Numbered from the stretch's first letter, positions 2,204-33,525 are shown. The stretch is DNA of 64,000 nt from Abditibacteriaceae bacterium (GCA_019239895.1 JAFAZH010000022.1:190583-254582); one strand, 5' to 3'. Translations and numbers: made by a program. The notes: generated from the sequence alone by a model not told the origin.

Positions 2204-2225
2204 ATGGCATTGGCATAGCTTCAAC

Positions 2226-4222: not shown

Positions 4223-4243
4223 GAAGTAGAAGTCAAGTTATTC

Positions 4244-12043: not shown

Positions 12044-12054
12044 TTATCCAGCTC

Positions 12055-12351: not shown

Positions 12352-12374
12352 ATCGCTCCTTGGCAACACGGGTT

Positions 12375-13004: not shown

Positions 13005-13041
13005 GGATTCTTCTCCGCCCCCCGCCTGGCAGTTGATATAG

Positions 13042-14001
13042 TTGATAAAGAGGGCATTAGTACCAACTTTAAGGGGCATTATGCATACCAATTCGGGCTT
13101 TTTCGATCTGCAAGTCAATGGTTATGGTGGTGTTGATTTTAATCAGGACGATTTAACCGCCGAGCAGTTGCATACAGCTTGCGCGGCATTAGCAGAGGCA
13201 GGCGTGGCTGGAATTCTGGCAACAGTTATCACCGAAGAAGTAGACAAAATGGCGCTGCGCCTCTCGAACCTGATGAAGTTGCGACAAGCGGATGCCCTGG
13301 CCCAGCAAATCATTGCAGGCTTCCACATCGAAGGCCCCTTTTTAAATGAAACACCAGGTTATCGTGGTGCTCATCCCGCAGATGCCATTCGGCCCGCCGA
13401 CACAGACAATATGAAGCGTCTCTTAGATGCCGCAGGTGGGCTAACCCGTTTAGTCACCTTAGCCCCCGAACGTGATCCACAACTGCAAGTCACCCGAATG
13501 CTGACAGAGCAAGGCGTTACCGTTTCTGCGGGGCATTGCGATCCCAGTCTGGATGAACTAAAAGCCGCCATTGATGCTGGCCTGAGTATGTTCACTCACT
13601 TGGGTAATGGCTGCCCGATGCAGATGCATCGCCACGATAACATTATTCAACGCGCTTTAAGCCTGAGCAACCAACTCTGGCTCTGCTTTATCGCGGATGG
13701 CGTTCATGTCCCGTTCCCCGCTCTTGGTAATTATCTTCGTGCCGCCGGGATAAAACGTTGTGTAGTGGTCACCGATGCCATCGCGCCCGCTGGTTTGGGG
13801 CCAGGGGATTATACCGTCAGTCGCTGGAATTTAACCATTGGCCCCGACATGGTGGCCCGTGCCCCTGATGGCTCGCATCTCATTGGCTCAGCCATCACTA
13901 TGCCCCAGAGCGTGCAGAATTTAATGGATCACCTGGACTTATCCGAAGCGGATGCTCATAAACTGACGGCAGAAAATCCGCACCGTGCGGTAGGAGTGTA
14001 A
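13042..14001 (+). CDS. nagA: N-acetylglucosamine-6-phosphate deacetylase-like amidohydrolase
   Basis: 319 aa. N-terminal [15 protein letters not shown] metal-binding motif is typical of NagA. Convergent with nagB. Confidence 0.7.
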
Positions 14002-14045: not shown

Positions 14046-14792
14046 CTAGTAAGACTGACTCAAGAGAGAAGCTGACTCGCGGTCTAAGTAAAGCTTAGTG
14101 GCAGGGTGTTGTTGCAGAATGGAGGCGGGCAAATCCTCGCTGACAGGCCCTTCCGCGGCACCTTTAACCGCCTCGGCTTTGCGCTCATCGGGCACACTGC
14201 AAATGATGGACTGAGATTTCATAATCTGGCGGATGGACATCGAAATCGCCTGCGTCGGCACATCATCCATCGACGGAAACCAGCCCTCTCCCACTTGTTG
14301 GCGGCGACACGCTTCGTCCAGGTTGACAACGATATAGGGCTTTTCGGTTTCAAAGTCGGCGGGAGGATCGTTAAAGGCGAGGTGCCCATTCTCGCCGATA
14401 CCAATAAAAGCCACATCTATGGGATGTTGCATGATGAGGTGGCTGAGGCGCTCGCATTCGGCGGGGGCATCTGTTTCGGCGTTGATGTAGTTAAAGGCAC
14501 GTAATGGCTGGGACAGTTGGTCTACGAAACGTTCCTTAAGGTAACGCCGGAACGAAGCCCCATGCGAAATCGGCATTCCCACATATTCATCTAAGTGAAA
14601 CGCTGTAATCTGACTCCAATCAATGTCGGGGGCAGCCACCAATTCCCCCAGCATTTCAAACTGCGAGGCTCCCGTAGCGACGACAATGTTCGCTTCTCCA
14701 TTCTCCCGTAATGCCTGGCGGATTAGCTCCGCGCCCGCCTGCGCCGCCTGTCGCCCCAACTCTTGTTTGCTATCGCTGATGATAATTTTCAT
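14046..14792 (-). CDS. nagB: Glucosamine-6-phosphate deaminase
   Basis: Start taken at [13 protein letters not shown], which has a GAGGT RBS. NagB motifs are present ([15 protein letters not shown]...). Confidence 0.85.
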
Positions 14793-14842
14793 AGGAACCT
14801 CTTCTTGTCCTCTCACTCCACAATAATAAATGCATAAAGGGG

Positions 14843-14957
14843 CGTGTCATGCTGAGCGAAGCGAAGCATCTACTCTGCGGAGCTATGGAGTGGCGGGTTT
14901 AACCATCGCTTTCTGAACACTCATATCAGATGCTTCGCTTCGCTCAGCATGACACGC
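14843..14957. repeat. Perfect 29-bp inverted repeat (cgtgtcatgctgagcgaagcgaagcatct ... agatgcttcgcttcgctcagcatgacacg) with a 57-nt loop. A half-copy lies at 59431-59470.
   Basis: Read directly. It sits between the AAA ATPase stop and the nagB start. A second partial copy (cttgtcatgctgaacgcagtgaagcatctactctgcggag) lies upstream of mutS. Confidence 0.5.
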
Positions 14958-15043: not shown

Positions 15044-16726
15044 TTAGGTTAACCCACCCCGCAACGCAGATGGTACAAAATCAAGGTCACTTGCCTCATG
15101 CACGGCCAGTTCAATTTGCACGCCTAAGACTTCTGGTGGCACCGGGTTCTGATAATCCGACAGACATTCTTTGAGGGCCGCCGCTGCATCCAACGATTCA
15201 ACTCGCACCAGGCGATAGGCTTTGATGGCAATTGCCTCCGCCGCGCCGGGTGTCAGCAAATTTGGGATAAATGCCTCTAATTCCGTGCCCTGCGCTTCAT
15301 TGATTTCCAGCCCGCGTCGCCGACAGAGGGCGCGGATGAGGTGAAATCCTTCAGCGGGTGTGGTGGTCGGGAAAAGTGGTATCTTCACATCAATGCGGCC
15401 CGGTCTTTTCAGGTCAACTTCGATCAGGTCAGGGCGACTGGAAGCCAGAATCCACACAACCTTGCCACGATTATCGGTGTTGCTCATCTCTTCGGCCAGC
15501 ATGGAGTAAATGCGGCCCGAAACACCCGAATCATTGCCGCCCGTATCGCGCCGCCCCAGGGCTTGATCGGCTTCATCTACGAAAACATAGCAGCGTCCTA
15601 ATGCCTGCAATAAGCGAAAGATTTTTTCCAGATTACCTTCGGTGCTACCGACCCATTTATCCCGAAAATTCTTCAGCTTGACAATCGGCACCCCAGCTTC
15701 ACCCGCGAGACATTCCACCATATATGTTTTGCCCGTGCCGACTGGCCCACAGAGCAGATAACCCATTGGCATGGCTTGCAGGTCATTCTGCCGCCAGAGT
15801 GCGATGTCCTGGCGCAGCCATGTTTTTACCTTGTCCTGTCCATGAAGATCATCTAACGATTTCTTTGATTCAATAAACTCAATTAGCCCGTTGCAGTCCT
15901 TTTCGACCAACTGCTTTTTGAGACTCACTAAATCATCGGCTTTAAGTTTTTGCCTGCGATGTTCAGTCGTTTTAAGCATATTCTCGACTGCGCTCAGGGT
16001 CGCGCCAGTAAGTTGCTGGGCGGGTTGCGCGAGGTTAGTGGTGTAATCACTTAATGCCGTTTTATAAGCCGGGGCCATTAACTCAAAGGCACACTGTAAA
16101 TCATCGGCTGCTGGCAATGGCACTTTGATATGCGCCACGCGCGGGTTATTGACTAAAAGCGGGTGCAAGTCGTTCAGGTTTTCTGTGATAAGAAAAGTGG
16201 CTAAATCATGCTCGGTGAGCAGGCTATCAATTGACCAATCGCGCATTAAAAGCGCGAGGGCGTTCAGGTCATAGTTCAATGCCCCTGGCAAGGCTGGTGC
16301 GATTAAGTGCGCCGTTTTCAAGAGACAACCAACAGGGGTTTTAGTGCCCTTTAAGCGGGCGAGGTTAGCGACATAACGGAAGTAGTGGGTCAAGGTTTCG
16401 ATGGCCGGACGGGGCGCGTTGGGCAGTTCCGGGTTTTCTTTGAAAGCTGGCCACTGGGTAAAGAACTCGCCACCCTTTTCGATACGGATGCCATTGCCCA
16501 GGTCATAGCTTAAGATGACATCGAAGCGCGGCATCAAAACGCGCAGCAGAAAATCATTCAAGCTGCCTAATTCGCCTTTGCTGCCGAGTGGCAATACCAT
16601 GCGGTCATAGACGTTACCATACAAGATGAATTGATTGGTCGCACTACTCTGATACTGCGTGATTAAATCCGCCGCCCAGGTGGGCAGATTGGGCGGGGCA
16701 ATGGGGGCCAACTCTGAGGTGCTCAT
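15044..16726 (-). CDS. AAA+ ATPase (classic clade, single C-terminal AAA module) with an uncharacterised ~330-aa N-terminal domain
   Basis: Walker A GPVGTGKT, Walker B VFVDEAD, second region of homology SSRPDLIEVDLKRPGRIDVKI. The N-terminal domain has no recognisable motifs. Confidence 0.75.
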   Translation of the reverse strand: MSTSELAPIAPPNLPTWAADLITQYQSSATNQFILYGNVYDRMVLPLGSKGELGSLNDFLLRVLMPRFDVILSYDLGNGIRIEKGGEFFTQWPAFKENPELPNAPRPAIETLTHYFRYVANLARLKGTKTPVGCLLKTAHLIAPALPGALNYDLNALALLMRDWSIDSLLTEHDLATFLITENLNDLHPLLVNNPRVAHIKVPLPAADDLQCAFELMAPAYKTALSDYTTNLAQPAQQLTGATLSAVENMLKTTEHRRQKLKADDLVSLKKQLVEKDCNGLIEFIESKKSLDDLHGQDKVKTWLRQDIALWRQNDLQAMPMGYLLCGPVGTGKTYMVECLAGEAGVPIVKLKNFRDKWVGSTEGNLEKIFRLLQALGRCYVFVDEADQALGRRDTGGNDSGVSGRIYSMLAEEMSNTDNRGKVVWILASSRPDLIEVDLKRPGRIDVKIPLFPTTTPAEGFHLIRALCRRRGLEINEAQGTELEAFIPNLLTPGAAEAIAIKAYRLVRVESLDAAAALKECLSDYQNPVPPEVLGVQIELAVHEASDLDFVPSALRGGLT

Positions 16727-16809
16727 TAGTGATAATTATAACGGCAGTGGGGCAGGACTTGCTTGATGCTCCATACGGTAGAAAGTGGGCCGGTAAGAGG
16801 AGCAGTGGT

Positions 16810-19800
16810 CTAATCGAAAAAGTTAGAGTTAGTCCATTGATTGAAAGGTCTCTCATGCCGCTGGTTGTCACTGAGCAATAGATACTGCGCAATAGCACGT
16901 TGAGCGTCCAATTGTGGTGGACTCCAGCCATTATTGCGGCCCGCTGTTGGTATTATCCAGGACATCTCGATGGCCCGCTCAATATCTATGGCCACCATCG
17001 CTGTGGCGATACTGCCGATTTGCTTGTTCCGATCCTGCCCATCTAAGATTCCCGCCAGGCTGCGCCGCCAACGGCTGAACTCTGTCTCTAACAAGAGGCG
17101 ACTCTCGGCAGGGTCAATCCGACTGTAGTAATAAGCCAAAGCCGCAGTCCCATCGTCCCCATTAGGGCCAGCACCGCGCCCATCCGCACGTTCCGCTTTG
17201 GTGCTGTCCCAGGCTTCTCTGGCCATTGCAAACACTTCTAAACCGTATTGGGGATCAAGATTATAGGCCAGGGCCGCAATGCGGGCCAGGTTGCCTACCT
17301 TGTCAAAGGGTTGATTACTGGCGGCATTGGCGGCTTCATGCAGCACGCGCAGGGCCACATCTTTCGGCTGAAACTGGGCCGCAAGGGTGAGCGTATCAGC
17401 TTTATAAAATCGCTCCGGGATACTACGTGCAATCTCTAGAACCCCAGCAGGATCAGTCTTCCCGATGATTGGAATGAGAACCTGCGCCGCCAAACCCGCA
17501 GCGCCACCACTCCGTAAATCAGTCTTTTCCAGGGCAATCAGTTGATCCAGCCAACGCCTGGCTATCTGCGGATCATAGTTGGCACCTCTCATCACAGCCT
17601 CTTCTAACACCGACTTACGCTGTTCACTTGGTAGCTCATCTATGATTTTGCTAGTTTGGTCATAATCAACCGCAGCTATCCAGCATAGTATCCATTCCTG
17701 ATTCTTATCCTTAATTGTTTTAAATACCTCTACCGCCTTGGCGACAAACTGCTTGGCTTCATCCTTAGCACCTATCCTGCGAGCCAGTTTACTCAGGCTA
17801 ACGGCACGCATGATAATACTCTGCTGATCCACGGCGGCATTATCGGTATGGCCCTTGTCATAGGCTTTAGCCCGGTTATATAAGTCTCTGGCTAAGGCTG
17901 GGTTTATATCGGCCACAGCTAAGCCTAAGCTAATGCTGGCCGTAAAAATAGCGCCAGCGTTTTGCATTTGATGGAGGTTGGGAGGTGCCCATACTGCGGC
18001 TTGCGCCGGATTAGATCGTGCCAGGTTGCTTATAATCTGGCTCATCATGGAGTCATCTACCGAGCCATCTTTCTTCCGAGCTATTTTAAGAGCCAGGTCA
18101 GGAGCATCAGCAGCTAACACGATGGGGATGTCTTCCCGATAAAACTTCATACCTTCCGTATCAGCCCACACTTCTTCAAGCAAATCGTAAGCTCGTTGTA
18201 CATCCGACGCAACGGGTGGTTTGGGAGGAGCTAAAGTTATATTAACGGCTGTATTACTACTAATACCGTGGGCTTCGCCAATACGACCTTTATAACCCGC
18301 AACAACCATGACTTGACTGGCAGGCACAGCGGACAGCACGAACTTGCCATCGGCATCAGCAACCGCTTGGACATCTATCTCACCATCAGGCGACATCACC
18401 TTCGCGCCGGGCACTGGTTTGCCCTCCGTATCCACGACCCGGCCTGTAATGCGTGAAGTCAGCGGCACTAAAACTATATCCTGTGCCACAAACCCAGCGT
18501 TTTGCTGCGTTACCTGGCCCCCAGATACATAGTTGTAGCCATGCATATTGGTGGCAAGCGACAACTTCACTGTAGGTCTCAGCTTATCAATGGTGAATTG
18601 TCCTTGGGCATCTGTCTGGACTTCTCGCACTGTGGAACGCAATGAATAGCCATTATAAATCTCGACGGAAGCCTTGATATCAACCCCCGCCAATGGTTGT
18701 TGACCTTTGGTTATAACGCGCCCCTTGAGCGTCCACAACGTTGCTTTTTGTACGGTTACATGCAACGGGGCGTCGAGTGGCACTGTAACTTCGTTAGGTG
18801 ATATAACGTCCCACTCCCCGGCACTACTGAGATGCCACTTGCCATGAGCTAAGCCGTCCATTGTCCACTGACCCATGTTGTCCGCATCAGCTTCTAATTC
18901 TTCCATCCACTGAGCATCATGATTGGATTGATAGTCTAGTGTCGCTTTGAACTTAGCATTAGCGACTGGCTTACCCTCTTTATCTACGACAGTTCCGACC
19001 AGCGATAAGCCTTTGACCATCTGAATGGGAGCTTGCCAGGTCTCACCTTGCTTAATGTCCACCTGGATCGGCTTAGTTAGCGGTAGATATTTAGGCACTT
19101 GTGCCCAGACCGAAATAATATTCTTCCCCGGTGCTACCCGCAACTGATAATGCCCGGCTTTGTCCGTCCTCACGATACGGAATCCGCCACCTCGCGCAGG
19201 CTGATGAGGGCCGTAACAGGTTAATGGCACCCCGGCGAGAGGGGCATTACTAGCACTGTCTGTGACTGTCCCTTCAATCAGTGCGCCTTCCATTAATTTA
19301 AAATCAGCGATTTTGGTGGTTTCGCCCGTTTTAAGCTCTATATCGCTAATGGCCGGAGCCACTATCTGGCCGGAAGGGTCAACTACGGCGACAGTAATCG
19401 CACCAGAAGGTAGACTCGCTAAATAATAAGTGCCATCTGCCGCTGTTTGAGCATGGCCCCAGGCACCCTGCTTGATGCCAATAACCTTAATGTCCTGTGC
19501 AGGTTTACCATCAGCATAGACTACGTGTCCTGTCACTATCGCGCCAGGACGCGCAGTGATGACCGCGTCTGTAGCGGGTGCCCCGGCTTTAACTTGAATC
19601 ACTTGATGTGCATAGCGAGGGTCATCTAAAGCGATACCGGCCAGACTGGAAGGCGTAATGCCTGTAATACTCCACTGCCCATCGGCCCCGCTTTTAACGG
19701 TGAACTTACTGTCCCAGGCTTCTGGTACTGTTGTTAGATTCCAGTGGTCTTCTGGGGGCGGAACGGGCTGCGTATATTGCAATTTGACAATGGCATCACT

Positions 19801-20160
19801 GATGGGTTTATCTTCTCGGTCTCGAACCACACCTTGCACCTGGGTTGCGCTTTCCAGCTTAATGAGGTTATCGCCGGGCGCTAATGAAACAGTGGCCAGG
19901 GCAAGAGGCGGAGCATAGACCGTGGCCGTGCCAAAAGCCTGAGCTGTATTGGCAAGAGGTTCTAAATCGGTTTTAAACAGGCCATCTTGATCGGTTGCCA
20001 ACGTAAGGGTCTTATCTTGAAAAGGGTCTTGGCGGATGAGAACTTGCGCCCCCACAACGGGTTTACCATCCGGCCCAACGACCTTACCCTTGATCGGCAC
20101 GGCCCAGGCAGCCGACAGGCTAAACGCCAGGTACAGCAGGGGGAATAATTTCCTCAACAT
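16810..20160 (-). CDS. Large secreted protein, paralog A (1116 aa): signal peptide, multiple carboxypeptidase-regulatory-like/Big-type beta-sandwich repeats, unknown ~480-aa alpha-helical C-terminal domain
   Basis: Signal peptide MLRKLFPLLYLAFSLSAAWA. The repeated V-x-G-x-V-x-D-x-x-G-K-P-V-x-G-A motif occurs about eight times. The C-domain is conserved with the two paralogs (YYSRIDPAESRLLLE..., tail NQW..N). Confidence 0.7.
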   Translation of the reverse strand: MLRKLFPLLYLAFSLSAAWAVPIKGKVVGPDGKPVVGAQVLIRQDPFQDKTLTLATDQDGLFKTDLEPLANTAQAFGTATVYAPPLALATVSLAPGDNLIKLESATQVQGVVRDREDKPISDAIVKLQYTQPVPPPEDHWNLTTVPEAWDSKFTVKSGADGQWSITGITPSSLAGIALDDPRYAHQVIQVKAGAPATDAVITARPGAIVTGHVVYADGKPAQDIKVIGIKQGAWGHAQTAADGTYYLASLPSGAITVAVVDPSGQIVAPAISDIELKTGETTKIADFKLMEGALIEGTVTDSASNAPLAGVPLTCYGPHQPARGGGFRIVRTDKAGHYQLRVAPGKNIISVWAQVPKYLPLTKPIQVDIKQGETWQAPIQMVKGLSLVGTVVDKEGKPVANAKFKATLDYQSNHDAQWMEELEADADNMGQWTMDGLAHGKWHLSSAGEWDVISPNEVTVPLDAPLHVTVQKATLWTLKGRVITKGQQPLAGVDIKASVEIYNGYSLRSTVREVQTDAQGQFTIDKLRPTVKLSLATNMHGYNYVSGGQVTQQNAGFVAQDIVLVPLTSRITGRVVDTEGKPVPGAKVMSPDGEIDVQAVADADGKFVLSAVPASQVMVVAGYKGRIGEAHGISSNTAVNITLAPPKPPVASDVQRAYDLLEEVWADTEGMKFYREDIPIVLAADAPDLALKIARKKDGSVDDSMMSQIISNLARSNPAQAAVWAPPNLHQMQNAGAIFTASISLGLAVADINPALARDLYNRAKAYDKGHTDNAAVDQQSIIMRAVSLSKLARRIGAKDEAKQFVAKAVEVFKTIKDKNQEWILCWIAAVDYDQTSKIIDELPSEQRKSVLEEAVMRGANYDPQIARRWLDQLIALEKTDLRSGGAAGLAAQVLIPIIGKTDPAGVLEIARSIPERFYKADTLTLAAQFQPKDVALRVLHEAANAASNQPFDKVGNLARIAALAYNLDPQYGLEVFAMAREAWDSTKAERADGRGAGPNGDDGTAALAYYYSRIDPAESRLLLETEFSRWRRSLAGILDGQDRNKQIGSIATAMVAIDIERAIEMSWIIPTAGRNNGWSPPQLDAQRAIAQYLLLSDNQRHERPFNQWTNSNFFD

Positions 20161-20363
20161 AGATACCTCACTTAGCTGTATGAATAGCTAATACGGGCCT
20201 TAAAGTGCCACCTGAACTCATTCACTTGTTCATTTGGCTAATCCCACAGAGTTAGTTGGATGTTAACACTTTCAATGGTCTAAGCACAAGTAAAATGGAG
20301 GGGCAGGTATATTACCCGTCCCTCCATTTATTCAGCCATTAGCGAACAGTGAATCTATAGCCT

Positions 20364-23300
20364 TTAATCCCAACCATTGACAACATCCCACTGCTGAAAC
20401 TGCTTGGTGTGGCGGTCAGTTTCCGGGAGCAGAATGTATTGGGCGATGGAGCGCTGGGCTTCGGCTTGCGGATTGTTCCATTCCTGGCCCTTATCGGGTG
20501 GCGGCATGAGAAAGCTCATCTCTAAGGCGCGGTCTACGTCTATGGCAGCCATCGCCATTACAATGGAACGAATAGTGTAACTGCGCTGATAGGAATCATC
20601 ACCTTTGGGTGCTTGCAACTGGCGGGCAAACTCGGATTCGAGGATCAGGCGACTGGCTGCCGGATCAATGCGGCTGTAGTAGAAGGCGAACTCCGCCGTG
20701 CCGTCATTACCAGCATACCACATCTGATTTTCGCGCTGCGCTTTTTGCGCCTCCCAGTGGTCTTTGGCATCATTAAAAAACTCCATCCCCATTTTAGGAT
20801 CAAGCTCATAAGTCAGTGCTGCAACCCTGGCTATAGGCTCTGCGGAACCGTATTGCTGTCCATTGGCAATATCGCCTGCCTCACGCAGCACTTGAAGCGC
20901 GACTTCTTTGGTCTGGTATTGGGCCGCGAGAGCCAGATCAGCCGGTTTTGACCACATTTCCGTCACACTGCGTGCCAATTCGAGCGCGCCTGCCGGATCG
21001 GTTTTGCCCATAACCTGGATTAAGGTCTGCGCGGCATAACCGGAATAACTACCCGTATTAGGATCGGCTTTTTCGACCTCCTTGAGCTTATCCAACCAAC
21101 GACGGGCCAACTTGGTGTCGTAGGCAGCCGTCTGTGTCACGGCTTGCTGGAGAGCTTGTTTGCGTTGGTCAGTGGGCAATCCATCAATTAATTTCGCCGT
21201 TTGATCATACTCCAGGGTCGCCACGCCCGCGAGTGTCCATTGCTGCGGGTCTTTCATGCCTTTAATGATCGTGAGAGCGGTCTGGATATACTGCTCGGCT
21301 TCATCATTGAGACCTAACTTTCTGGCCAGTCGTGCCAGCGGCACGATTCTTGACAAAATAGACTGCTGATCTTTGGCATTCTTAGCCGTCTCTTCTTTGT
21401 CGTAATCTTTGGCCTTCTGGTAATACTGCTTGGCGAGATCAGGTTGCTTAGCTGCGATATTGATAGCAAACGTAATCCAGGCGGAGAAAGCAATTCGCTT
21501 GTCCTTGATCTGCTCCATTTTCGGCGGTGCCCAGTCCCCGGCACGAGTGGGATTCGCTTTGGCAAAGGTTGTGATAATGTTGCTCAAGATGCCATCGTCT
21601 ATGGAGCCATCTTTGCGGGACGCCAGTTTCACCGCCAGGTCAGGATTATAAGGCGCGATAGCTGTTGGGATATTATCCCGATAATATTTTCCGCCCTCGG
21701 TGGTGGCCCACAACTCATCGAGAATATCATAGGCCCGCTGCACATCGTTGCCGGGCAGGGGTTTGACCGGATTCACGGTAAGGGTTAGTGGCTTACTGCC
21801 ATCTACATCGCGCGCTTCGCCAATGCGATCTTTAACGCCACCCACAACCATCACCTGTCCGGCGGGCAGCGAGGTCAACACGAATTTACCGGTCGCATCA
21901 CTGGGCACCTGTAAATTGACATCGCCGTTGGGCGACATCACCTGTGCCCCGGCCACGGGCTTACCTGCCGCATCCACGACACGGCCTTCAATCTTGGCCG
22001 TTAATGGCACCAGCACCATGTCTTGCACCGAGAAAGCATTATCTTTTTGCGTCACAGTGCCACCGGAAACGTAGTTATAGCCGGGCATCGTCGTGGAGAG
22101 CGAGATTTTATAATCAGAGCGCAGATTCTCAACCGTATATTGCCCCTTAGCATCCGTGGTCAATTCTTGCAGGTCGCCGCGATAGGAATTTGCACCCTCT
22201 GGAATTTGGAGATACGCCTTGATTCTCACGCCTTCGAGTGGCTTATGGTCTTTGGTCAGAACGTGCCCGGTAAGGTTCAAGAGTTGCACTTTGCGGACCG
22301 TTAATTTAACCGGAGCATCGAGCGGCACTGTCAACTCTTTAGGGCCTACCACGTCCCAGGTTCCAACACCCACCAGGTTCCATTTGCCAGGCTTCAGCCC
22401 TTCCAGTGTCCACTTGCCTTCGTTATCGGGCTTGAAATTGATTGGCTGAACGTAGGCACCGCGATTCGACTCCCAGGAAAGCGAGGCTCGCATCTCAGCG
22501 TTGGCGGCTGGTTTGCCATCGGCATCAACGGCGGTGCCCGTCACGGTGAGACCCTTCGACAACTGAATCGGCACAGTTTTGGTCTCGCCTTTTTGCACTT
22601 CGACCTCAATCGTTTTATCGAGGGGTAGATACTTGGGAGCCTGATAGATCGCAATTGTAATTTTGCCGGGGGGCACGCGCAATTTGTAATGCCCATCTTT
22701 ATCAGAAGTTTCAGGCATTATCATACCGCTGGTCTGAGGTTGATCCGTTCTATAGCTGCTGACCGGTGCCCCCACTACGGGTTTGCCACTGTCCTTATCG
22801 GTAACAGTGCCTTCAATCAGGGCACCCTCGGTGAGCACCGCGTCCGTGACTTTGACGTTATCGCCTTCTTTGGTCTTGACATTTTCCACGGGCAAGGCAA
22901 TCCACTTCTTCTCCGGGTCACCGAAGCTGATCGCCACTAAGCCATCACCTAAGCCGTTGAGCGTATAGGTGCCATCAGCGGCTGTTGTGGCCGCCCCAAA
23001 GAAGCCTGAGCCTCCTGCCTGCACCCTGATGCCGGGAGCCGGTTTGCCATCTTCATGTACCACGCGTCCGGTGACGCTGGCACCAGGCCGCGCCACGATA
23101 GAGGTCACTGACGCCGCTAACCCGGCTTTAACCTGAGCATACGTGCGAATATAACGGGGGTCTTCCAGGAGAACCGCGCCCAGGCCATTGGCAGGCACAC
23201 CGTCCAATTTCCACTGGCCATTGGCATCGCTCTTGACGGTGAATTTGTCGGCTAATGCTTCCGGCACCATCGTGTAGGTGAACTGCCCATTTCCCACCCC

Positions 23301-23711
23301 CGGTAAGCCCACGTTGCCGAGTTTCACCACCGCATCGGCTACTGGTTTCCCCGCTTTATCTTTGACGATGCCTTGAACGGGAACGGATTTATCTAATTTA
23401 ATAATGTTGTCGCCAGCATTAGCCTTCAAAACCGTGCCGCCCAATGCCATATTAGGCACATAGGCCGTGGCCATGCCAAAGCTATCCGGCCAGGTAGGAC
23501 TCAGTTCTAAATCGGCTTTAAATACACCAGCCTGATCGGAGGTGAGGCTTAATGGTTTCTTTATGGTCTCATCATAAGTCGTCATGATAACCACCTGGGC
23601 ACCAGCCACCGGTTTACCATCTGGCCCCACTACCTTGCCAGTAATCGGCACCGCATGAACTATAGCCACACTCAATACAACATAAACGACGGGGAGCAGT
23701 TTTCTCAGCAT
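20364..23711 (-). CDS. Large secreted protein, paralog B (same architecture as 16810..20160)
   Basis: Start taken at MLRKLLPVVYVVLSVAIVHA signal peptide. Same repeat series and C-domain (AFYYSRIDPAASRLILE, QWDVVNGWD). Confidence 0.7.
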   Translation of the reverse strand: MLRKLLPVVYVVLSVAIVHAVPITGKVVGPDGKPVAGAQVVIMTTYDETIKKPLSLTSDQAGVFKADLELSPTWPDSFGMATAYVPNMALGGTVLKANAGDNIIKLDKSVPVQGIVKDKAGKPVADAVVKLGNVGLPGVGNGQFTYTMVPEALADKFTVKSDANGQWKLDGVPANGLGAVLLEDPRYIRTYAQVKAGLAASVTSIVARPGASVTGRVVHEDGKPAPGIRVQAGGSGFFGAATTAADGTYTLNGLGDGLVAISFGDPEKKWIALPVENVKTKEGDNVKVTDAVLTEGALIEGTVTDKDSGKPVVGAPVSSYRTDQPQTSGMIMPETSDKDGHYKLRVPPGKITIAIYQAPKYLPLDKTIEVEVQKGETKTVPIQLSKGLTVTGTAVDADGKPAANAEMRASLSWESNRGAYVQPINFKPDNEGKWTLEGLKPGKWNLVGVGTWDVVGPKELTVPLDAPVKLTVRKVQLLNLTGHVLTKDHKPLEGVRIKAYLQIPEGANSYRGDLQELTTDAKGQYTVENLRSDYKISLSTTMPGYNYVSGGTVTQKDNAFSVQDMVLVPLTAKIEGRVVDAAGKPVAGAQVMSPNGDVNLQVPSDATGKFVLTSLPAGQVMVVGGVKDRIGEARDVDGSKPLTLTVNPVKPLPGNDVQRAYDILDELWATTEGGKYYRDNIPTAIAPYNPDLAVKLASRKDGSIDDGILSNIITTFAKANPTRAGDWAPPKMEQIKDKRIAFSAWITFAINIAAKQPDLAKQYYQKAKDYDKEETAKNAKDQQSILSRIVPLARLARKLGLNDEAEQYIQTALTIIKGMKDPQQWTLAGVATLEYDQTAKLIDGLPTDQRKQALQQAVTQTAAYDTKLARRWLDKLKEVEKADPNTGSYSGYAAQTLIQVMGKTDPAGALELARSVTEMWSKPADLALAAQYQTKEVALQVLREAGDIANGQQYGSAEPIARVAALTYELDPKMGMEFFNDAKDHWEAQKAQRENQMWYAGNDGTAEFAFYYSRIDPAASRLILESEFARQLQAPKGDDSYQRSYTIRSIVMAMAAIDVDRALEMSFLMPPPDKGQEWNNPQAEAQRSIAQYILLPETDRHTKQFQQWDVVNGWD

Positions 23712-23791
23712 AAATACCTCATAGATTCTTGTGCCATGCAACACATCTGGCTTAACTATGGTGTCAAGACCCCAGATTATTTACATTTAAA

Positions 23792-25195
23792 TTAGTTCAC
23801 ATGCGACAACTTTAACCACACCGGACTATTGGGCCGCAGCGTGAGTGACGCCACTGGCCGAATAACCTGGTCGGACAGCAACTCCAGGCAGAACCGTTGG
23901 AGCACCATAGCAACAATAAGACGCATTTCAAGCAGCGCAAACTCATTACCAATGCATTGATGCGGGCCACCCAAGAAAGGAAAATAAGTGCCCTTGGGCC
24001 GCATCCCCGCTTGTTCCAGGCTAAATCGGTCAGGATCAAATACTTCTGGCTCCTGCCAAATATCAGGATGACGGTGCGTCACGAAAGGGCACAGCATAAC
24101 TGTGGAGTTGGCCGGAATACAGAAGCCACCCACTTCATCCTCTTCTATAACCTGACGCGACACGGCCCAGATGGGTGGATAGAGCCGCATCGCTTCCTCA
24201 ATGACACGCCGCGTGATGTCCAGTTGCAAAACCTCCGCGAGTTGCGGGGTGCAGGTTCCGCATACCGCCGCGACTTCTTCACGCACCTGCTGCTGGATCG
24301 CGTCATGGGAGGCCAATAAATACCACACCCAGGTGAGAGCCGTGGCGGTAGTCTCATGCCCTGCTATCAAGAAAGTTAAAACCTCACTGCGGAGTTGGTC
24401 ATCCGTCATGGCTTCGCCTGTCTCCTCGTCACGCGCCTGCATGAACATAGAGAGCAAATCACCATGATCCCGACCCTCGCGCCGCCGCTCTTGAATCAGC
24501 GACAGGACAAGCTGATTCAAGGTCGTAGCGGCCTGCTGGAAGCGACGGTTGGCTCTGGTCGGAACACTTGTGGGCAGCGCCGTGAAGGGATGATCGAAGC
24601 GGTATCTCAGATATTGGCTCAGGACATCAAATGATTTTCCCACCATATCCGCTTCACCCCCCACATCACGGTCAAAGAGCGTGCGACCAGCGATGGTCAA
24701 AGCCAGACCCGCCATCTCCGGGCCAATCTCTAATGCTTGCCCTGACGTGGCGGCGTCCCGCCAGCGGGCCAAGAGTTGGGCCGTGGCATCTACCATAATC
24801 GCGGCGTAGGCGGCTAACCGCTGGTGTTGGAAAGCGGGTTGTGCCAGTCGCCGTTGCCGCCGCCAATGATTGCCCTCAGACACGAGCAGATTGTCCCCGA
24901 ATAGTTGGCGCAGCAAACGATAATGCCAACCCCGCAGATAATTCTTCTGATGGGTAAAGAGGACGCGCCGGATATGATCGGGGTGAAACAGAAAATGAAG
25001 CAGCAAAGGGCCAATACGCAAGCGCATCACGTCCCCGCACCGTGCTCGGCCCTGGATCTGAAAAGCGAGCGGATCATGCAAAAATTCCTGCAATGTGCCA
25101 TAGGGCAATGGCAGCCATTGCACCATACCAGGAGCCATAGTCATTTCTATCACCTCCGTTGCACCTATTGTCTTAGCCGCCTCAGCCCACCCCAA
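23792..25195 (-). CDS. Cytochrome P450
   Basis: 467 aa. Heme-binding loop FLGGPHQCIGNEFA, ExxR (EEAMRLYPP) and the oxygen-binding helix AGHETTA. Confidence 0.85.
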   Translation of the reverse strand: MGWAEAAKTIGATEVIEMTMAPGMVQWLPLPYGTLQEFLHDPLAFQIQGRARCGDVMRLRIGPLLLHFLFHPDHIRRVLFTHQKNYLRGWHYRLLRQLFGDNLLVSEGNHWRRQRRLAQPAFQHQRLAAYAAIMVDATAQLLARWRDAATSGQALEIGPEMAGLALTIAGRTLFDRDVGGEADMVGKSFDVLSQYLRYRFDHPFTALPTSVPTRANRRFQQAATTLNQLVLSLIQERRREGRDHGDLLSMFMQARDEETGEAMTDDQLRSEVLTFLIAGHETTATALTWVWYLLASHDAIQQQVREEVAAVCGTCTPQLAEVLQLDITRRVIEEAMRLYPPIWAVSRQVIEEDEVGGFCIPANSTVMLCPFVTHRHPDIWQEPEVFDPDRFSLEQAGMRPKGTYFPFLGGPHQCIGNEFALLEMRLIVAMVLQRFCLELLSDQVIRPVASLTLRPNSPVWLKLSHVN

Positions 25196-25361
25196 CTCGT
25201 TATGGCAGAGGTTCTGAGAGGATTTATAAAGAGCCAGGGCGATATATTCCTGTTAGCGCAGAGCACAATACCATGCGCCACACCCTTTTCTATATATGGA
25301 CAGTCACCGTTCAAAAAGGACAGGCGGCAAGAAAAATTATTTCTTGGGCCGCTAACTGGTG

Positions 25362-28300
25362 CTACTGCCAGCCGTTGCTTTTATCCCAATCTCTGAAGGA
25401 CTTGCTGCGTCGCTCGGCATCGGACAGTAAAACGTATTGGGCAATCAGGCGCTGGCCTTCGGTTTGGGGATTATTCCACTGGTCGTCTTTATCGGGTGGG
25501 GGCAGCAGATAGGTTAGTTCCATCGCCCGGTCAATATCTACCGCCGCCATTGCTGCAATGAGATTAGTAAGGTTGTTGCTATACTGCCAGCGATTATCGG
25601 TGGTTCTCGGTATCTGCTTCTGGCGGGTAAACTCGGCTTCCAGGAGGAGCCGACTTTCGGCAGGGTCTAAACGGCTATAGTAATAGGCAAAGTCGGCGAT
25701 GCTGGTGTTTTGCCCGCCATAAATATCGCTGCTCTCACGCTGCGCCTTTTCTGCTTCCAGGCGCGTATGGGCCGTCTCGAAAATTTCCGCACCGATTTTC
25801 GGGTCTATTCCATAGGCGATGGCAGCTACTCTGGAATTGGCATCCAGAGACGGATAGGCTGCCGCCGCATCGGCGGCTTCGCGCAACACCTGCAAGGCCA
25901 CATCTTTAGGCTGGTATTGGGCGGCTAAGGCGAGGGTGATGGCGCGATTATAAGTGTCGCGGGTCGAGTCGTTATGCGCCAACTCCAGCGCCGCTGCGGG
26001 ATCACGCTTGCCGAGCGCCTCGACCAAACTTTGCTTTGCCGAGCCGGAATAGATGCCGCCATTGGTATTTTGTTTTTCGATTTCCAGCAGGTTATCGAGC
26101 AAACTCCGGGCAGTTAGCAGATCACCATAACTTATGCTGGAAGTAATCGCATTGGAGATCACCTGCTTGCGCGGTTCAGCAGACAAATCGGCCAATAGTT
26201 TCCCACCCAAATCAGGATTAAAGGCTATCGCTTTTCCGTCCCCATCAGGATTAAGCGCCAACACAGGCCCCATCATCCAGGTGCGCTCCGCAGCGGGGGT
26301 CGCATTGATGGCATTAATCGCCACCTGCGCGAATTGATTCGCTTCGTTTTTCAAGTGCAATTTGGCGGCTATCCGGCTCAGTAGCGTCGCACGGCTTGAA
26401 ATGCCCTGGTATTCTTTGGGATTTTGGGCGGTCTGGTCTTTATCAAATGCCTTTGCCTCATTATAGAAGCCTTTGGCCACGTCAGGTTTAAGGTCAGCCA
26501 GAGCAAACGCCAGGCTTGATTTGGCAGTATAGGACGAATAACCATCTTTAATCTGGGTTACTTTTGGCACGGCCCACTCCAGAGCACGAGCCGCATCGGT
26601 TTTCGCTACAACGGCTATAATCTGGCTTAAAATCGAATCATTGATAGTGCCATCCTTGCGCGAGGCCAGCTTTACGGCCAGGTCAGGATCATAAGCAGCC
26701 AGGGTGACGGGAATGTTATTCCGGTAAGTTTGGGTGCCTTCCGTGGTGGCCCACAATTCTTCCAGCAAGCTGTACGCCCGCTGAATGTCACTGGGAGGCA
26801 CCGGCTGCACCGGCTGCAACTTCAAGCTCACTGGCGCTTTGCCATTGACATCGCGGGCCTCGCCAACCGCGCCTTTATAGCCAGCTATCACCATAACATC
26901 GCCTGCGGGTAATGAAGTCAGGGTAAATTTACCATCGGCATCTGTAGTCACCTGCAATTTAGGATCACCGTCGGGCGACATGACTTTAGCGCCCGCCACT
27001 GGCTTACCTTCAGCATCCGCGACGACTCCCGTGACTTTGGCTGCTAGTGGCAGGAGCACTATATCCTGCACCTCGAACCCCTGCCCTTGCAAGGTGACTT
27101 TACCGCCAGCAAGGAATTTATACCCTGCCGCATCCGGGGTAAAAGAGACTTTAACATCGGGTCGCAAATCTTTTAAGGTGAATTGACCAGTCGCGTCCGT
27201 AGCAGCATCCTGCTCATCAAGCTGTGTCGAATTTTGACCGTCTGGCACCTCCACATGCGCTTTAATCGTGACGGCACCTAGAGGTTTATGGTCTTTTGTG
27301 ACCACGCGACCTTTAAGAGTTAATAAGTTCACTTTGCGCAGGGTCAGTTTCTGCGCGTCAGTTGCTGGCACAGAAATTTCCAGCGGCCCCACCACATTCC
27401 AGGCTCCACTAGTGGACAGCGACCATTGCCCTTTGCGCAGGCCATCCAACGCCCATTTACCTGTTGCATCCGTCTTGGTGGTAACTGGCTGGATCCATTC
27501 ACCGTTCTGGTTAGGGTCTTTAATGGTAGCCTTAATTTCGACATCCGCTGCGGGTTTGCCCTGCGCATCCAAAGCGATGCCCGCAACGGTTAAGCCCGCG
27601 TTGAGTTCAATGGGCAGCTCTTTGGTCTCACCCTTGCCGACTTCAACTTCCAATGGCTTTGCCAGCGGCAAGTAGCCTTTCGGCTGCTCTAACAATGACA
27701 CGGTGTTCTTACCAGGAGTCACCCGTATTTTATAGTGACCCTCTTTATCGCTGCGCACGGGTTCAATGCCACCCACTGCGAGCTGGCTCTCCGCGCCAGC
27801 CCACACTGCCACATTGGAGAGGGGCGCTCTAGTAGCCTTATCAGTCACGACACCAGTGATAAAGGAGCCTTGAATGAGAGTGTGATTAGGAGCTTGCACC
27901 GTCTCACCGGACTTTGCCTTAATGTCAGAAACCGGCAGGGTAACCCACTGGCCAGAAGGGTCAGCGGCGACCACTATCACTGGCCCCGGCGTCAGCCCGG
28001 TCAAATGGTAGATGCCATTGGCATCGGTTGTATCGTTAGCTCCAAAAGGGCCACCACTACCGCCCACTGCGCTCACTTTAATGCCCGCGGCGGGAGTGCC
28101 ATCTTCATGCACCACTTTGCCCGTGACCGACGCGCCCACCTGCGCTGTCAAGGTCGTGGGCGTACCACCGGGAGTAACTTCGGCAAAAGCATGGATATAC
28201 CGGGGATCATTCAGCAACACCATGCCGTGATAAGCAGCAGGTACGCCACCCAGCGTCCAATTGCCATCAGCGCCGCTTTTTACGCTGAACTGGCTTTTAA

Positions 28301-28751
28301 GTTGTTCTGGCACAATCGCCGCAAGCCCATCCAGGTTGTTCATGTTCTTAAAAGCGGCGATCAAGGTCACAACGGCATCAGCAATAGGCTTCCCCGTGCC
28401 ATCTTTAACACTGCCATGCGCTTCGGCGGGAGCCTCCATTTTAATAATGTTCTGCCCCTGCTTTAAGAGGCCGCCACTTAGCGCCAGACCCGGCACATAA
28501 ACCGTCACTATTCCATAACTATTGGGAGGATTGGTCGTGAGATTTAAGTCTGCCTTAAAGACACCATCCTGATCGGTTTCAAAGGTGAGCGGAGCAGGCG
28601 GCGGGTAGCTGTTGAGACTGGTAAAGACAAAGACCTGCGCCTTAGCGATAGGCTTGCCGTCGGTGCCAACCACTTTGGCCGTTATCGGCACGGCGTGCGC
28701 AAGTGTGCAATGGGCTAAAAAACAAAAGAGAAAAAGGGCACGCTTCAACAT
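25362..28751 (-). CDS. Large secreted protein, paralog C (same architecture)
   Basis: Start taken at MLKRALFLFCFLAHCTLAHA signal peptide. Same beta-sandwich repeat series and conserved C-domain (FAYYYSRLDPAESRLLLE, DWDKSNGWQ). Confidence 0.7.
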   Translation of the reverse strand: MLKRALFLFCFLAHCTLAHAVPITAKVVGTDGKPIAKAQVFVFTSLNSYPPPAPLTFETDQDGVFKADLNLTTNPPNSYGIVTVYVPGLALSGGLLKQGQNIIKMEAPAEAHGSVKDGTGKPIADAVVTLIAAFKNMNNLDGLAAIVPEQLKSQFSVKSGADGNWTLGGVPAAYHGMVLLNDPRYIHAFAEVTPGGTPTTLTAQVGASVTGKVVHEDGTPAAGIKVSAVGGSGGPFGANDTTDANGIYHLTGLTPGPVIVVAADPSGQWVTLPVSDIKAKSGETVQAPNHTLIQGSFITGVVTDKATRAPLSNVAVWAGAESQLAVGGIEPVRSDKEGHYKIRVTPGKNTVSLLEQPKGYLPLAKPLEVEVGKGETKELPIELNAGLTVAGIALDAQGKPAADVEIKATIKDPNQNGEWIQPVTTKTDATGKWALDGLRKGQWSLSTSGAWNVVGPLEISVPATDAQKLTLRKVNLLTLKGRVVTKDHKPLGAVTIKAHVEVPDGQNSTQLDEQDAATDATGQFTLKDLRPDVKVSFTPDAAGYKFLAGGKVTLQGQGFEVQDIVLLPLAAKVTGVVADAEGKPVAGAKVMSPDGDPKLQVTTDADGKFTLTSLPAGDVMVIAGYKGAVGEARDVNGKAPVSLKLQPVQPVPPSDIQRAYSLLEELWATTEGTQTYRNNIPVTLAAYDPDLAVKLASRKDGTINDSILSQIIAVVAKTDAARALEWAVPKVTQIKDGYSSYTAKSSLAFALADLKPDVAKGFYNEAKAFDKDQTAQNPKEYQGISSRATLLSRIAAKLHLKNEANQFAQVAINAINATPAAERTWMMGPVLALNPDGDGKAIAFNPDLGGKLLADLSAEPRKQVISNAITSSISYGDLLTARSLLDNLLEIEKQNTNGGIYSGSAKQSLVEALGKRDPAAALELAHNDSTRDTYNRAITLALAAQYQPKDVALQVLREAADAAAAYPSLDANSRVAAIAYGIDPKIGAEIFETAHTRLEAEKAQRESSDIYGGQNTSIADFAYYYSRLDPAESRLLLEAEFTRQKQIPRTTDNRWQYSNNLTNLIAAMAAVDIDRAMELTYLLPPPDKDDQWNNPQTEGQRLIAQYVLLSDAERRSKSFRDWDKSNGWQ

Positions 28752-28980
28752 TCCGGTCTCCTGGTTTGAACTGAGTGAGCATTGGGCATCATTTGGATGC
28801 ATATTTGGGGCAAAAAGTTCGTTAATGGCTTGCCCCATTTAGAACTTGGAAAGCGAAGAAAGTGGCACCAACTACGGCCACTGAAGAATTCAGATAAGAA
28901 CCCCCGGATTCTGTCGGAGGTTCTTATCAATAGCGGTTAGAGGAGACGCTGGGAAGAATGTAAGGCTGGTTAATGCAGCA

Positions 28981-29739
28981 CTACTGCAAGGTGGTTTCGG
29001 CTGGCCCCATAGATTTGAAGGTTTCTGCCGATTCGTTGGTCGTTTTAGCGGCAGGCGCAGGCAGAGCCATACCCTCTTTCGCGGCGAAATCGGCCAGGGC
29101 TTGATCGGCTAGGGCGCGTTGCTCGCTTTCTTTCAGTTCAAAGTCGTTGACATTCAGGCTGTCGCGGGCCACACGAGCGCGTCCGGCAGCTTTCTGGCGG
29201 TCTTCTTCGACCATCTCATGCAAACGGTTGAGTGTATCGCCGGAGCCGCCGATGGACGAAATCATGCCCGTCGCCATTTCCGTCATTTCGGCAGTGGCTT
29301 TTTTGATCTTTAAGTCGTCAATGGCATACTTAAGCGCCTCAATTTTAGACTTGGCCGCATCTACTGTCACATTACGGGCTTTGGTCAAGTCCTTATAAGT
29401 CGCTTCAGCCTGCTCAAGCTGCTTACGGTTCTCTTCTAATTCACTGGTTACAGTTTGGAGCCGCAAAGCTTGCTGGCCCGCAATTTCATTGTTACCAGCA
29501 CGCAGGTTAGCCGCCGTTTTAGCGCGCAGTTCATGCTCTTCGGTTTCAAGCTTTTTGACTTGCGCCATCAGCCGCTCGCACATTCCTGCATGAGTCGCTA
29601 AACCCTGGTTATAGCGAGCAATCTGCTTGCGCAAATTTTCCTTCTCCACTTCCAGCAAGGCTTCCGGGTTCTGTCTTTCCATGCCGGAGATGAAGAGGCC
29701 AAAAAATCCCCGAACCAGGTTCGAGAGTCGCTTAAACAT
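28981..29739 (-). CDS. pspA: PspA/IM30 (Vipp1/ESCRT-III superfamily) protein
   Basis: 252 aa. The N-terminal amphipathic helix MFKRLSNLVRGFFGLFISGMERQNPEALLE and the long coiled coil are typical of the PspA/IM30 family. Confidence 0.8.
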   Translation of the reverse strand: MFKRLSNLVRGFFGLFISGMERQNPEALLEVEKENLRKQIARYNQGLATHAGMCERLMAQVKKLETEEHELRAKTAANLRAGNNEIAGQQALRLQTVTSELEENRKQLEQAEATYKDLTKARNVTVDAAKSKIEALKYAIDDLKIKKATAEMTEMATGMISSIGGSGDTLNRLHEMVEEDRQKAAGRARVARDSLNVNDFELKESEQRALADQALADFAAKEGMALPAPAAKTTNESAETFKSMGPAETTLQ

Positions 29740-32311: not shown

Positions 32312-33525
32312 TCAGGCGGGCGGTTTTTTGGCGATATGCAGGTGCCATTGATAGGCTGCCGAATTGAGGGCTTCATAAGGCGGCAAGTCAATAGCGGAAT
32401 AGCTTTGCTGAAAGCCCTGCGCGTTGTAGCGCGTTAACTCATTAGCTAAAGATAATGCACTACTCGGTTGGGCAGGCCGGAAATGATATTTTAGCCCACT
32501 CTGAAGAGCTTCCTTACTGCCCAGAAAATTGATGAAAGCCAGGGCACCTTCTCGTTGCTCAGGAGTGGCCCAATCTCCAGTAAGCAGGCTAACAGCATGT
32601 TCCGAGACCGCAGTGGGATGCGGGTAGATAACGGCTAAATCGGGATTATGCGGCGCGGCTTCGAGGGCGGCGCTCTCATAAGCCGTAATAACGTCATAGC
32701 GCGAGGCATCTTCTAAAAATGCCTGCGTCAGCTTGGTTGTCCCCTGCTCGGCAGGTTTATCATAGATCAGGCTGCGCTCTAATTCACTTAAATACTGGAG
32801 GAACTTAGGGTCAGTGCTGAGCCGAGCCAGAGAGCCACCTTGCCCGGTGCGCTCTCCATAATCATAGAGTATCAAGCCCAGTGTCAGCATCCCACTGCTG
32901 GAAGTGAGGGGGTCAGCATGGGAAAAGCGAAACCACGTCCAGGGCGTCTTAAGCTGGTGCAGACTCAGCTTGCGCAGTGCCAGCCAGGGGTTGGATCCAC
33001 CCAACAGGGGACGTAGGAACTTCGCCTTGCGTTGAGTCGTGAGAAAGACTAAGGGTGAACGCAAAAAGACTCGATAAGCATTGGGGTCGCTCATATCCAA
33101 CAGCGTGCTATGATGCTTCTCTGTCCAGGCTTCGGCCAATCGTGTGGGCCAAATGGGGCTGCCCGGACTCCAGAGGATGGGTTTTCTTTGCCCTCTAAAA
33201 TGGCGTGCATCGCCTCACGCGAAGGAATAGCCTTAGTGACAATGTGCCATTTCCCACTATTAGCCCCATTAAAGTGGTCAACCTGATCCTGCACCCAGTC
33301 TTTCTTCGCCGCCGTGATGACAAACTCAATGTCGCTATTGCTGCCACTGCCGGATGAACCGTTGCTACCACCCGCGCCTTTGCCGATATTTGGGAGTTTA
33401 AAGTTCCAACCCGGCCCGGAAGAGCGTCCCGCCCCTTGCTGCTGTTGCCACCATTTCATGCCACCAATGGCAAGGCCCGCGACTAGAATCAGAATAGCGA
33501 CTTTACCTAACCCCGTTAGGCGCAT
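32312..33525 (-). pseudogene. Probable frameshifted extracellular solute-binding protein gene (two overlapping ORFs in different frames)
   Basis: ORF 33525..33091 encodes a signal peptide plus an SBP-like N-terminus (DIEFVITAAKKDWVQDQVDHFNG). ORF 33139..32312 continues in another frame. The junction lies at an A-rich run (ggcaaagaaaaccc, about 33178-33192). Confidence 0.4.

Follow-up and report, generated by a model that had tools for sequence, protein, structure and literature searches.

The PspA protein of bacteria co-occurs with a protein that has two AAA+ domains, the N-terminal one being inactive, according to the sections of Ravi et al. 2024 (PMC11237479) that deal with this pairing. 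The same sections describe longer PspA-ATPase operons, which also include an ABC ATPase, a permease and an OmpA/solute-binding protein. This description is computational, and we have found no experimental work on the pairing. Here we describe a locus of this kind in an Abditibacteriaceae bacterium (GCA_019239895.1, JAFAZH010000022.1:190583-254582). The stretch analyzed has 64,000 nucleotides and is called the window in what follows. In this lineage the PspA and AAA+ genes, which are normally adjacent, are separated by a tandem array of three paralogous genes (A, B and C) coding for large proteins with signal peptides, together with a cytochrome P450 gene.

We lean, with some reservation, towards the following reading. 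The tandem paralogs A, B and C would be exported, non-enzymatic envelope proteins with a binding or sensing role, and the array, with the P450 as a passenger, splits the PspA-AAA+ pair. A Sec signal would direct each paralog to the periplasm or the cell surface. There, a fixed arm of seven transthyretin-like beta-sandwiches would carry a strongly curved alpha/alpha solenoid of ~450 residues, the putative recognition module. Copies would multiply in tandem and diverge fast, in line with diversified specificities. The genes concerned are the following:

15044..16726, minus strand: AAA+ ATPase of the classic clade, 560 amino acids (aa); PF00004, 89 bits vs 21.2
16810..20160, minus strand: paralog A, 1116 aa; C-terminal domain roughly at 16813-18228; five CarboxypepD_reg stretches, E 2.7e-46
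20364..23711, minus strand: paralog B, 1115 aa; C-terminal domain at 20367-21770; the copy used for the full-length model
23792..25144, minus strand: cytochrome P450, ~450 aa; PF00067, E 4.5e-85, 286.6 bits; heme-ligand loop FLGGPHQCIG
25362..28751, minus strand: paralog C, 1129 aa; C-terminal domain at 25365-26813
28981..29739, minus strand: PspA/IM30, just upstream of C; PF04012 over residues 2-220, E 1e-11, 45.3 bits vs 33.9

The first five of these genes had been described in an earlier note on this DNA, made from the sequence without database searches, and all of them are found at the positions it gave, on the minus strand, with A, B and C in the same direction. Longer mechanical open reading frames (ORFs) exist for B (20364-23744), C (25362-28838) and the P450 (23792-25195). 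A Shine-Dalgarno sequence, GAGG or GGAG, is found 5' of the ATG codons at 20160 (A, GAGG), 23711 (B) and 28751 (C, GGAG), and for this reason we prefer these starts to the longer ORFs. For the P450 we take the ATG at 25144 as the likely start; it has GGAGG in front of it, and the resulting length of 450 aa agrees with that of the homologs. Pairwise identity is 49% for A/B, 43% for A/C and 51% for B/C, with similar values in the N- and C-terminal halves. They lie within the by-eye estimate of about 40–60%. These values, together with tandem arrays of two and eight members in other genomes, bear out the idea of an old, maintained multigene family. The three proteins are acidic (pI 5.5–5.7) and their mature forms contain from zero to two cysteines; B and C have none past the signal peptide.

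A Sec-type signal peptide is predicted for each of A, B and C, and the N-terminus is hydrophobic in 78 of the 84 full-length relatives. Both observations support the export of these proteins, as the earlier note had proposed. The N-terminal halves contain five or six CarboxypepD_reg stretches each in Pfam (E 1e-46 to 1e-50), and their multi-copy scores for PF13620 are 156–169 bits, well above the cut-off of 32.3. An AlphaFold (AF2) model of full-length B, built from an alignment of 84 family sequences, has a predicted local distance difference test score (pLDDT) of 91.7 and a predicted template modelling score (pTM) of 0.90. In this model a signal helix (residues 2-17) is followed by beta-sandwiches at approximately 21-105, 108-207, 211-294, 297-384, 388-474, 478-569 and 572-645, and then by ~24 helices across residues 657-1102. 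The repeats are therefore CarboxypepD_reg beta-sandwiches as first suggested, and their number in this model is seven, not about eight. A pTM of 0.90 over 1,115 residues means that the placement of the domains with respect to each other is confidently predicted: the protein would have a fixed shape, rather than that of beads on a string. The beta-sandwich array resembles NOMO2 (E 4.8e-25), and its domains are similar to CnaB pilin/adhesin domains and to the B repeats of SdrD.

The C-terminal domain (C-domain) begins near residue 650 and is all-helical, as anticipated, with ~24 helices; its length is about 450–470 aa, somewhat less than the 480 aa first estimated. A model of this domain alone, built from a five-sequence alignment, has a pLDDT of 85 and a pTM of 0.83. 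The last ~465 residues have no match in Pfam or NCBIfam, even at E<=10, and searching the PDB sequences with a profile gave nothing meaningful. Foldseek searches with the predicted structure, a check which the earlier note had recommended, gave no match to solved structures at E<1e-3 (TM-scores 0.2–0.3), so no well-characterized family has been found for it. The stacked helical hairpins form a superhelix, which places the domain in the TPR/HEAT-like alpha-solenoid fold class. As a sequence family it is distinct from TPR: the best Pfam score, for TPR_8, is 16.6 bits vs 25.7 and is found only in B, with none in A or C. The conserved blocks quoted in the earlier note are present, except that the terminal W..NGW is found in B and C and not in A.

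Positions of the C-domain which are conserved in 80% or more of the 84 members are occupied chiefly by alanine and leucine, with a few arginines, glutamates and aspartates. R1021, E1025, D1058 and R1061 (numbered as in B) make up a conserved patch. No histidine, serine, cysteine or lysine of the C-domain is conserved across the family. Neither a natural alpha/alpha-barrel enzyme nor a thioester domain came up in the models and searches, and there is no CGEQ motif. Since, in addition, the conserved residues are mostly alanine and leucine, we take the C-domain for a helical-repeat module which serves recognition and not catalysis, and which would constitute an undescribed sequence family. Two other identities have been considered for it. 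An alpha/alpha-toroid enzyme, such as a polysaccharide lyase or hydrolase, with the beta-sandwiches as carbohydrate-binding or spacer modules, is highly unlikely given the Foldseek result, the absence of conserved residues of catalytic type and the lack of any CAZy-type Pfam match at E<=10. Even less credit can be given to a protease trap of the alpha-2-macroglobulin type, with macroglobulin-type (MG) beta-sandwiches and a helical thioester-like domain. There are weak Pfam matches to MG4 and MG2 (E 6e-6 to 5e-3), and the layout is similar, many beta-sandwiches plus a single helical domain. However, the CGEQ/CLEQ motif which defines the thioester domain is missing, mature B and C lack cysteine altogether, and the helical domain is terminal instead of inserted and ~150 aa bigger. 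The absence of the thioester cysteine effectively refutes this identity.

The C-domain was said to be unique. This is true of curated libraries and does not hold for sequence space. A word-indexed search had given only four matches, which suggested extreme rarity. On the other hand, when 1.84 billion representatives, clustered at 50% identity, were searched exhaustively with a profile, 461 clusters came up at E<=1e-3; of these, 328 remain at E<=1e-10 and 149 at E<=1e-30, so the idea of extreme rarity has been abandoned. Most of these clusters have ~1,080–1,170 aa and the same layout, with the C-domain at ~650-1100. All named sources are Armatimonadota or Abditibacteriaceae (metagenomes of Armatimonadota/Abditibacteriota). 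Their database labels are "carboxypeptidase regulatory-like domain-containing protein" or, misleadingly, "protocatechuate dioxygenase beta subunit". Scans for related loci, which rest on two peptide patterns and are weak for this reason, found one locus in GTDB genomes, four in JGI metagenomes and none in viral contigs. Nothing relevant on proteins of this kind from Abditibacteriota or Armatimonadota was found in the literature.

Family members appear in several genomic contexts, which we designate by locus numbers. Two members adjoin each other in L006, 172 bp apart. An eight-member tandem array is found in L003 (also L004 and L010), where the last four members are separated by 15–17 bp. This array covers positions 1-23457 of L003 and is followed by a gene for a LacI-type regulator. 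In one of its members (10001-13675, protein P0152, 1224 aa), two tandem C-domains replace the long beta-sandwich arm. Single copies of ~1,330 aa are found beside asd-dapA-rnj, a core-genome context, in L020-22. A member near dapB, asd, dapA and rnj is also found in L001, and L002 presents another core-genome context. The L001 gene (7641-11294, Abditibacteriaceae YX2bin8) is the only relative found in GTDB representative genomes; it is broken into two ORFs, probably by a frameshift from long-read assembly.

In a rough neighbour-joining tree, the clade of the window includes A, B, C, the L005 and L007 members and both members of L006 (L006a/b). It has the appearance of a star with long branches, at 44–56% identity, and its sister group contains forms fused to sigma factors. 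A comparison of the window with L005, where a single paralog is present, shows how fast the family changes. PspA is 87% identical, AAA+ 82% and NagB 78%, while the sole L005 paralog is only 41–49% identical to A, B and C, and is least similar to A, the copy which holds the same position. Since paralog identity is so far below that of the flanking genes, the family must turn over or diverge several times faster than they do. Fast divergence and tandem multiplication fit diversified specificities.

The same features might be expected of structural surface proteins, S-layer-like coats or adhesins, whose divergence and copy number would come from an arms race with phages or grazers. This is a reading to which we give a minor share of credence. 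The proteins are exported, large, acidic and nearly cysteine-free, their beta-sandwiches are like those of pilins and adhesins, and the tandem copies diverge far more than the flanking genes. Nevertheless, Pfam and NCBIfam scans found no SLH domain, sortase signal, PEP-CTERM or other anchor, and the scores with the anammox S-layer model NF052345 are 19–23 bits, compared to a cut-off of 1,400. The same C-domain is found on the periplasmic side of sigma fusions of the inner membrane, which are described below, and a compact, fixed predicted shape is not the signature of a lattice-former. The scan of viral contigs, limited to the two peptide patterns, gave no relatives suggesting receptor mimicry.

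The gene which follows copy A codes for an AAA+ protein, as had been noted (PF00004, 89 bits; the gap is 83 bp instead of 84). Its classic-clade membership is clear from the PF00004 match, the Walker A (GPVGTGKT) and Walker B (VFVDEAD) motifs and the second region of homology; the pore loop KWVGSTE and an RPGR sequence are also found in the translation. The closest relatives in PDB are the D2 domains of VAT, Cdc48 and Afg2. These relatives and the pore loop fit a substrate-threading enzyme, and, by analogy with ESCRT-III/Vps4, PspA polymers would be its obvious substrate. An hhalign comparison of the N-terminal half with a profile of the AAA half is not significant (probability 0.2%, E 0.27); by eye, LITENLNDLHPLLVNNPRVAHIKVPLP and LASSRPDLIEVDLKRPGRIDVKIPLF are colinear. 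No signal peptide or transmembrane segment is predicted for the AAA+ protein. It should therefore be cytoplasmic, unable to reach the exported paralogs directly.

The relatives of this ATPase also indicate that its partner is not the array. Its N-terminal 320 residues, used as a query, give more than 1,450 homologs with 60–74% identity, in Abditibacteriaceae, Chloroflexota, Verrucomicrobiota, Planctomycetota and Acidobacteriota. The paralog family is missing from the majority of these groups. PspA is immediately upstream of AAA+ in two other Abditibacteriaceae loci (L011 and L012), in Chthoniobacter (Verrucomicrobiota, L013/14) and in Thermoanaerobaculia (Acidobacteriota, L015/16), with gaps of ~45–145 bp. 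In fact, this arrangement is found in every ortholog locus examined which has no insertion at the junction, L019 included, while in the window the array separates the pair. The conserved block extends upstream of PspA, with three more genes in the window:

29986-30747, minus strand: U253, a conserved gene with no Pfam, NCBIfam or PDB match
30797-31759, minus strand: U320, a conserved gene with no Pfam, NCBIfam or PDB match
32312..33139, minus strand: solute-binding protein (SBP; Pfam match to SBP_bac_11), the upstream edge of the conserved block

PDB sequence searches with PspA, U253 and U320 were empty. The order of the window, SBP, a ~320-aa gene, a ~250-aa gene, PspA and AAA+, is found uninterrupted in L011 and L012. 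Identities to the window in these loci are 50–57% for the SBP and the two genes which follow it (50% for the SBP of L012), 74–75% for PspA and 73–74% for AAA+. In L019, the end of U253 is 71% identical and both PspA and AAA+ are 79% identical. Across Abditibacteriota, Verrucomicrobiota and Acidobacteriota, the PspA of the SBP-U320-U253-PspA-AAA+ block is 69–87% identical and the AAA+ 64–82%. Such identity across phyla is unusually high.

The segment between the PspA and AAA+ genes, with the order C-P450-B-A, covers positions 16727-28980 (12.2 kb). We read it as an insert because PspA and AAA+ adjoin in L011, L012 and other phyla. No direct or inverted repeats were found around it; the only repeated sequences are the paralogous coding blocks themselves, with 60–83% DNA identity. 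The P450 gene is located between copies B and C, as the earlier note had it. The PF00067 match (287 bits) and the cysteine of the FxxGxxxCxG heme-ligand loop identify it, and its scores for specific NCBIfam equivalogs are all under the cut-off. Its homologs, 58–80% identical, are found in Planctomycetota, Methylomirabilota and others, as a stand-alone family. A P450 with 71% identity is present in L017, an 8.8-kb contig with no family member nearby. The gene is absent from all the related loci with family members that we have examined (L003, L005, L006, L018 and L019), so it is a lineage-specific passenger.

Transcription of the region was also considered. A hairpin follows the PspA stop codon (-23.1 kcal/mol, z-score -5.6), and a terminator-like hairpin followed by UUUU is found after the stop codon of B (-23.3 kcal/mol, z-score -5.7). 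The 83-nt spacer between A and AAA+ has no significant structure, and scans for consensus promoters and terminators were not above the shuffled expectation. The strong hairpins after PspA and B argue against a single transcript for the five genes, which is probably not made.

These results bear on the model of the earlier note, in which A, B, C, the P450 and AAA+ would form one secreted or surface apparatus, with a dedicated ATPase remodelling the paralogs. The five genes are co-directional and close to each other, and in L005 the paralog is followed by AAA+ after 7 bp. On the other hand, the ATPase is widespread in phyla without the paralogs, where it is found beside PspA, and it appears to be cytoplasmic while the paralogs are exported. 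The survey of synteny suggested in that note shows that the P450 is not conserved and that AAA+ is conserved with PspA instead; the L003 array has no ATPase. With hairpins after PspA and B as well, the five genes are not one machine, and such an apparatus is very improbable. A defence role was also looked for with PADLOC, which gave no match for A, PspA, U253, U320 or the P450; the AAA+ protein only shows generic AAA similarity to IetA.

The window is not the only case of family members within the PspA operon. In L005, as mentioned above, a single paralog lies between PspA and AAA+. A 500-aa ORF with no Pfam match (979-2481, opposite strand) is also found in L005 between PspA and the paralog; it has no counterpart in the window and may not be a real gene. 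In L019, two family members (325-7522) are located between the U253 ortholog and PspA, so that PspA and AAA+ are still adjacent. The second of them is called as three genes, probably because of frameshifts. Three related genomes thus have members in this operon, at one or the other of two junctions, and it looks like family members have been inserted repeatedly into it. The L019 member is 32–36% identical to the window copies and belongs to a different subclade, which suggests independent insertions. Repeated insertion could reflect selection for co-regulation with an envelope-stress module, or just a permissive site.

The first of these possibilities leads to another reading, in which the family has a functional tie to the PspA-AAA+ repair module as its extracytoplasmic arm, for example as damage sensors, or as envelope components produced under stress along with PspA, and its position in the operon has been selected. 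The insertions at the PspA/AAA+ junction (window and L005) and at the U253/PspA junction (L019), by members of different subclades, speak for such a tie, and both PspA and sigma factors of the extracytoplasmic function (ECF) type are envelope-stress systems. We consider it doubtful, all the same. The operon is uninterrupted in L011 and L012, which are also from Abditibacteriaceae, and in two further phyla, and most members are located elsewhere (L001-L003, L006-L008, L018 and L020-22). The hairpins after PspA and copy B do not favor it. Three loci of a single subclade are also a small sample, and a hot spot of local recombination would give the same picture.

A more direct indication of a role for the C-domain comes from relatives linked to ECF sigma factors. 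In L007 (8210-11401) and L008 (8429-11545), continuous ORFs code for sigma70 regions 2 and 4 (r2 and r4), one transmembrane helix and the C-domain. An IS240-type DDE transposase gene is found directly upstream of the L007 fusion. Over the last beta-sandwich and the C-domain, the L007 protein is 51% identical to B and the L008 protein 33%. All the fusions (L007, L008, P0007, P0008, P0021 and P0105) have zero or one beta-sandwich before the C-domain. Sigma regions and the transmembrane helix are both present in P0007, in P0008 and in P0021, the last being the protein of L008; in P0105 a sigma region is matched and no transmembrane segment is above the hydropathy threshold. A case without fusion is found in L018 (7345-12014), where genes for an ECF sigma factor, a 247-aa protein with an HLDGCESC sequence and one transmembrane helix, and a family member follow each other with gaps of 6 and 17 bp. 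To judge from its sequence, the 247-aa protein is a zinc-type anti-sigma (ZAS) factor. A TonB-ExbD-ExbB cluster is located divergently upstream in L018. Paralogs A, B and C themselves have no sigma70 r2 or r4 and start with signal peptides, so they are not ECF fusions.

Because relatives carry the same module on membrane-anchored ECF sigma fusions, we regard the solenoid of A, B and C as a likely extracytoplasmic module for recognition or sensing. The family might then be the exported half of an envelope-surveillance system, in which the solenoid recognizes envelope damage or an envelope component and, depending on the genome, reports it through an ECF sigma factor, fused or in the same operon, or alongside PspA-AAA+ repair. 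So specific a proposal is unlikely. If true, it would link an extracytoplasmic sensor to membrane repair of the PspA type, into whose operon members of different subclades have been inserted at least twice.

Several points weigh against our preferred reading, that of exported binding or sensing proteins whose array splits the PspA-AAA+ pair. Homology points to no ligand for A, B or C, and a known sorting tag was looked for in them and none was seen. The compact, fixed shape predicted by the model implies a difference from typical adhesins with flexible stalks. The ECF ties are found in few loci, with fusions in 4 of the 154 relatives listed and an operonic association in one of ~10 contexts, and several members are found in housekeeping contexts (L001, L002 and L020-22). 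The recurrent placement in the PspA operon hints at a tie which a passenger insertion leaves unexplained. Our trees are distance-based, without support values.

Other features of the window may be mentioned briefly. Between the AAA+ stop codon and a nagB-like gene lies an inverted repeat with perfectly matching 30-nt arms and a spacer of 56 nt (14842-14957; -70.9 kcal/mol, z-score -10.8). An arm related to it, with three mismatches, is present at 59434-59458, so this repeat may be a small dispersed palindromic element. The nagB-like gene (14046-14816) is downstream of AAA+ in L005 as in the window, and next to it is a nagA-like gene (13042-14001, plus strand). Further away there are genes for a DUF1559/N-methyl pilin-like protein (12375-13118) and for a protein of the GGDEF + HD-GYP type (9050-11332), as well as a full-length 6S RNA gene (463-677, minus strand; Rfam RF00013, 59 bits).

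The family has at least 461 clusters and a confidently predicted architecture without solved precedent, and it is found in phyla with almost no experimental biology. Its C-terminal domain merits a family definition, and the ECF sigma fusions are a concrete lead to an extracytoplasmic recognition role. The locus also illustrates how a neighboring gene can mislead: the ATPase adjacent to the array has its partner at a distance of 12 kb. Those who study bacterial ESCRT-III-like systems may take an interest in the split pair, and in the fact that family members seem to have come into its operon more than once. The locus does not overturn current knowledge.

In summary, the locus may be compared with five kinds of known systems. 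Its PspA, AAA+, SBP and two conserved genes are orthologous to the arrangement described in the relevant sections of Ravi et al. 2024 (PMC11237479). The difference is that the window pair is split by 12.2 kb, and inserts of this kind are not mentioned in those sections. In relation to ESCRT-III/Vps4, PspA belongs to the ESCRT-III superfamily, and the window ATPase shares with Vps4 the classic clade and a KW.G pore loop. However, the MIT domain of Vps4 was not detected: only PF00004 is found at E<=0.01 over the 560 aa. The N-terminal half, unlike that of Vps4, is another domain of ~290 aa, described in the literature as an inactive AAA+ domain.

As a fold class, the C-domain compares with TPR/HEAT-like solenoids, such as the designed toroid 6xr1, Ton1535 (3zpj) and the TPR domains of LGN and BcsC. 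It has no sequence relation to them (12–17 bits with TPR Pfam models, compared to 25–30), and its recurring DP..A..L helix starts are peculiar to the family. The beta-sandwich arm resembles NOMO, a component of the BOS complex, the N-terminal extension of SusC and the transthyretin-like domain of carboxypeptidase D, none of which bears a C-terminal alpha-solenoid. NOMO is a eukaryotic protein of the endoplasmic reticulum membrane, unlike the bacterial proteins described here, which are exported. SusC has a single N-terminal transthyretin-like extension on a TonB-dependent barrel, compared to the seven-domain arm of A, B and C. Finally, ECF sigma factors with C-terminal extensions and anti-sigma factors with sensor domains have been described by Casas-Pastor et al. 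2021 (PMC7826278). In the fusions of ECF sigma, one transmembrane helix and C-domain, it is a relative of the C-domain that makes up the extracytoplasmic end, and one member follows an ECF sigma/ZAS pair. A, B and C, in contrast, are exported on their own, with a long beta-sandwich arm and no sigma or anti-sigma part.

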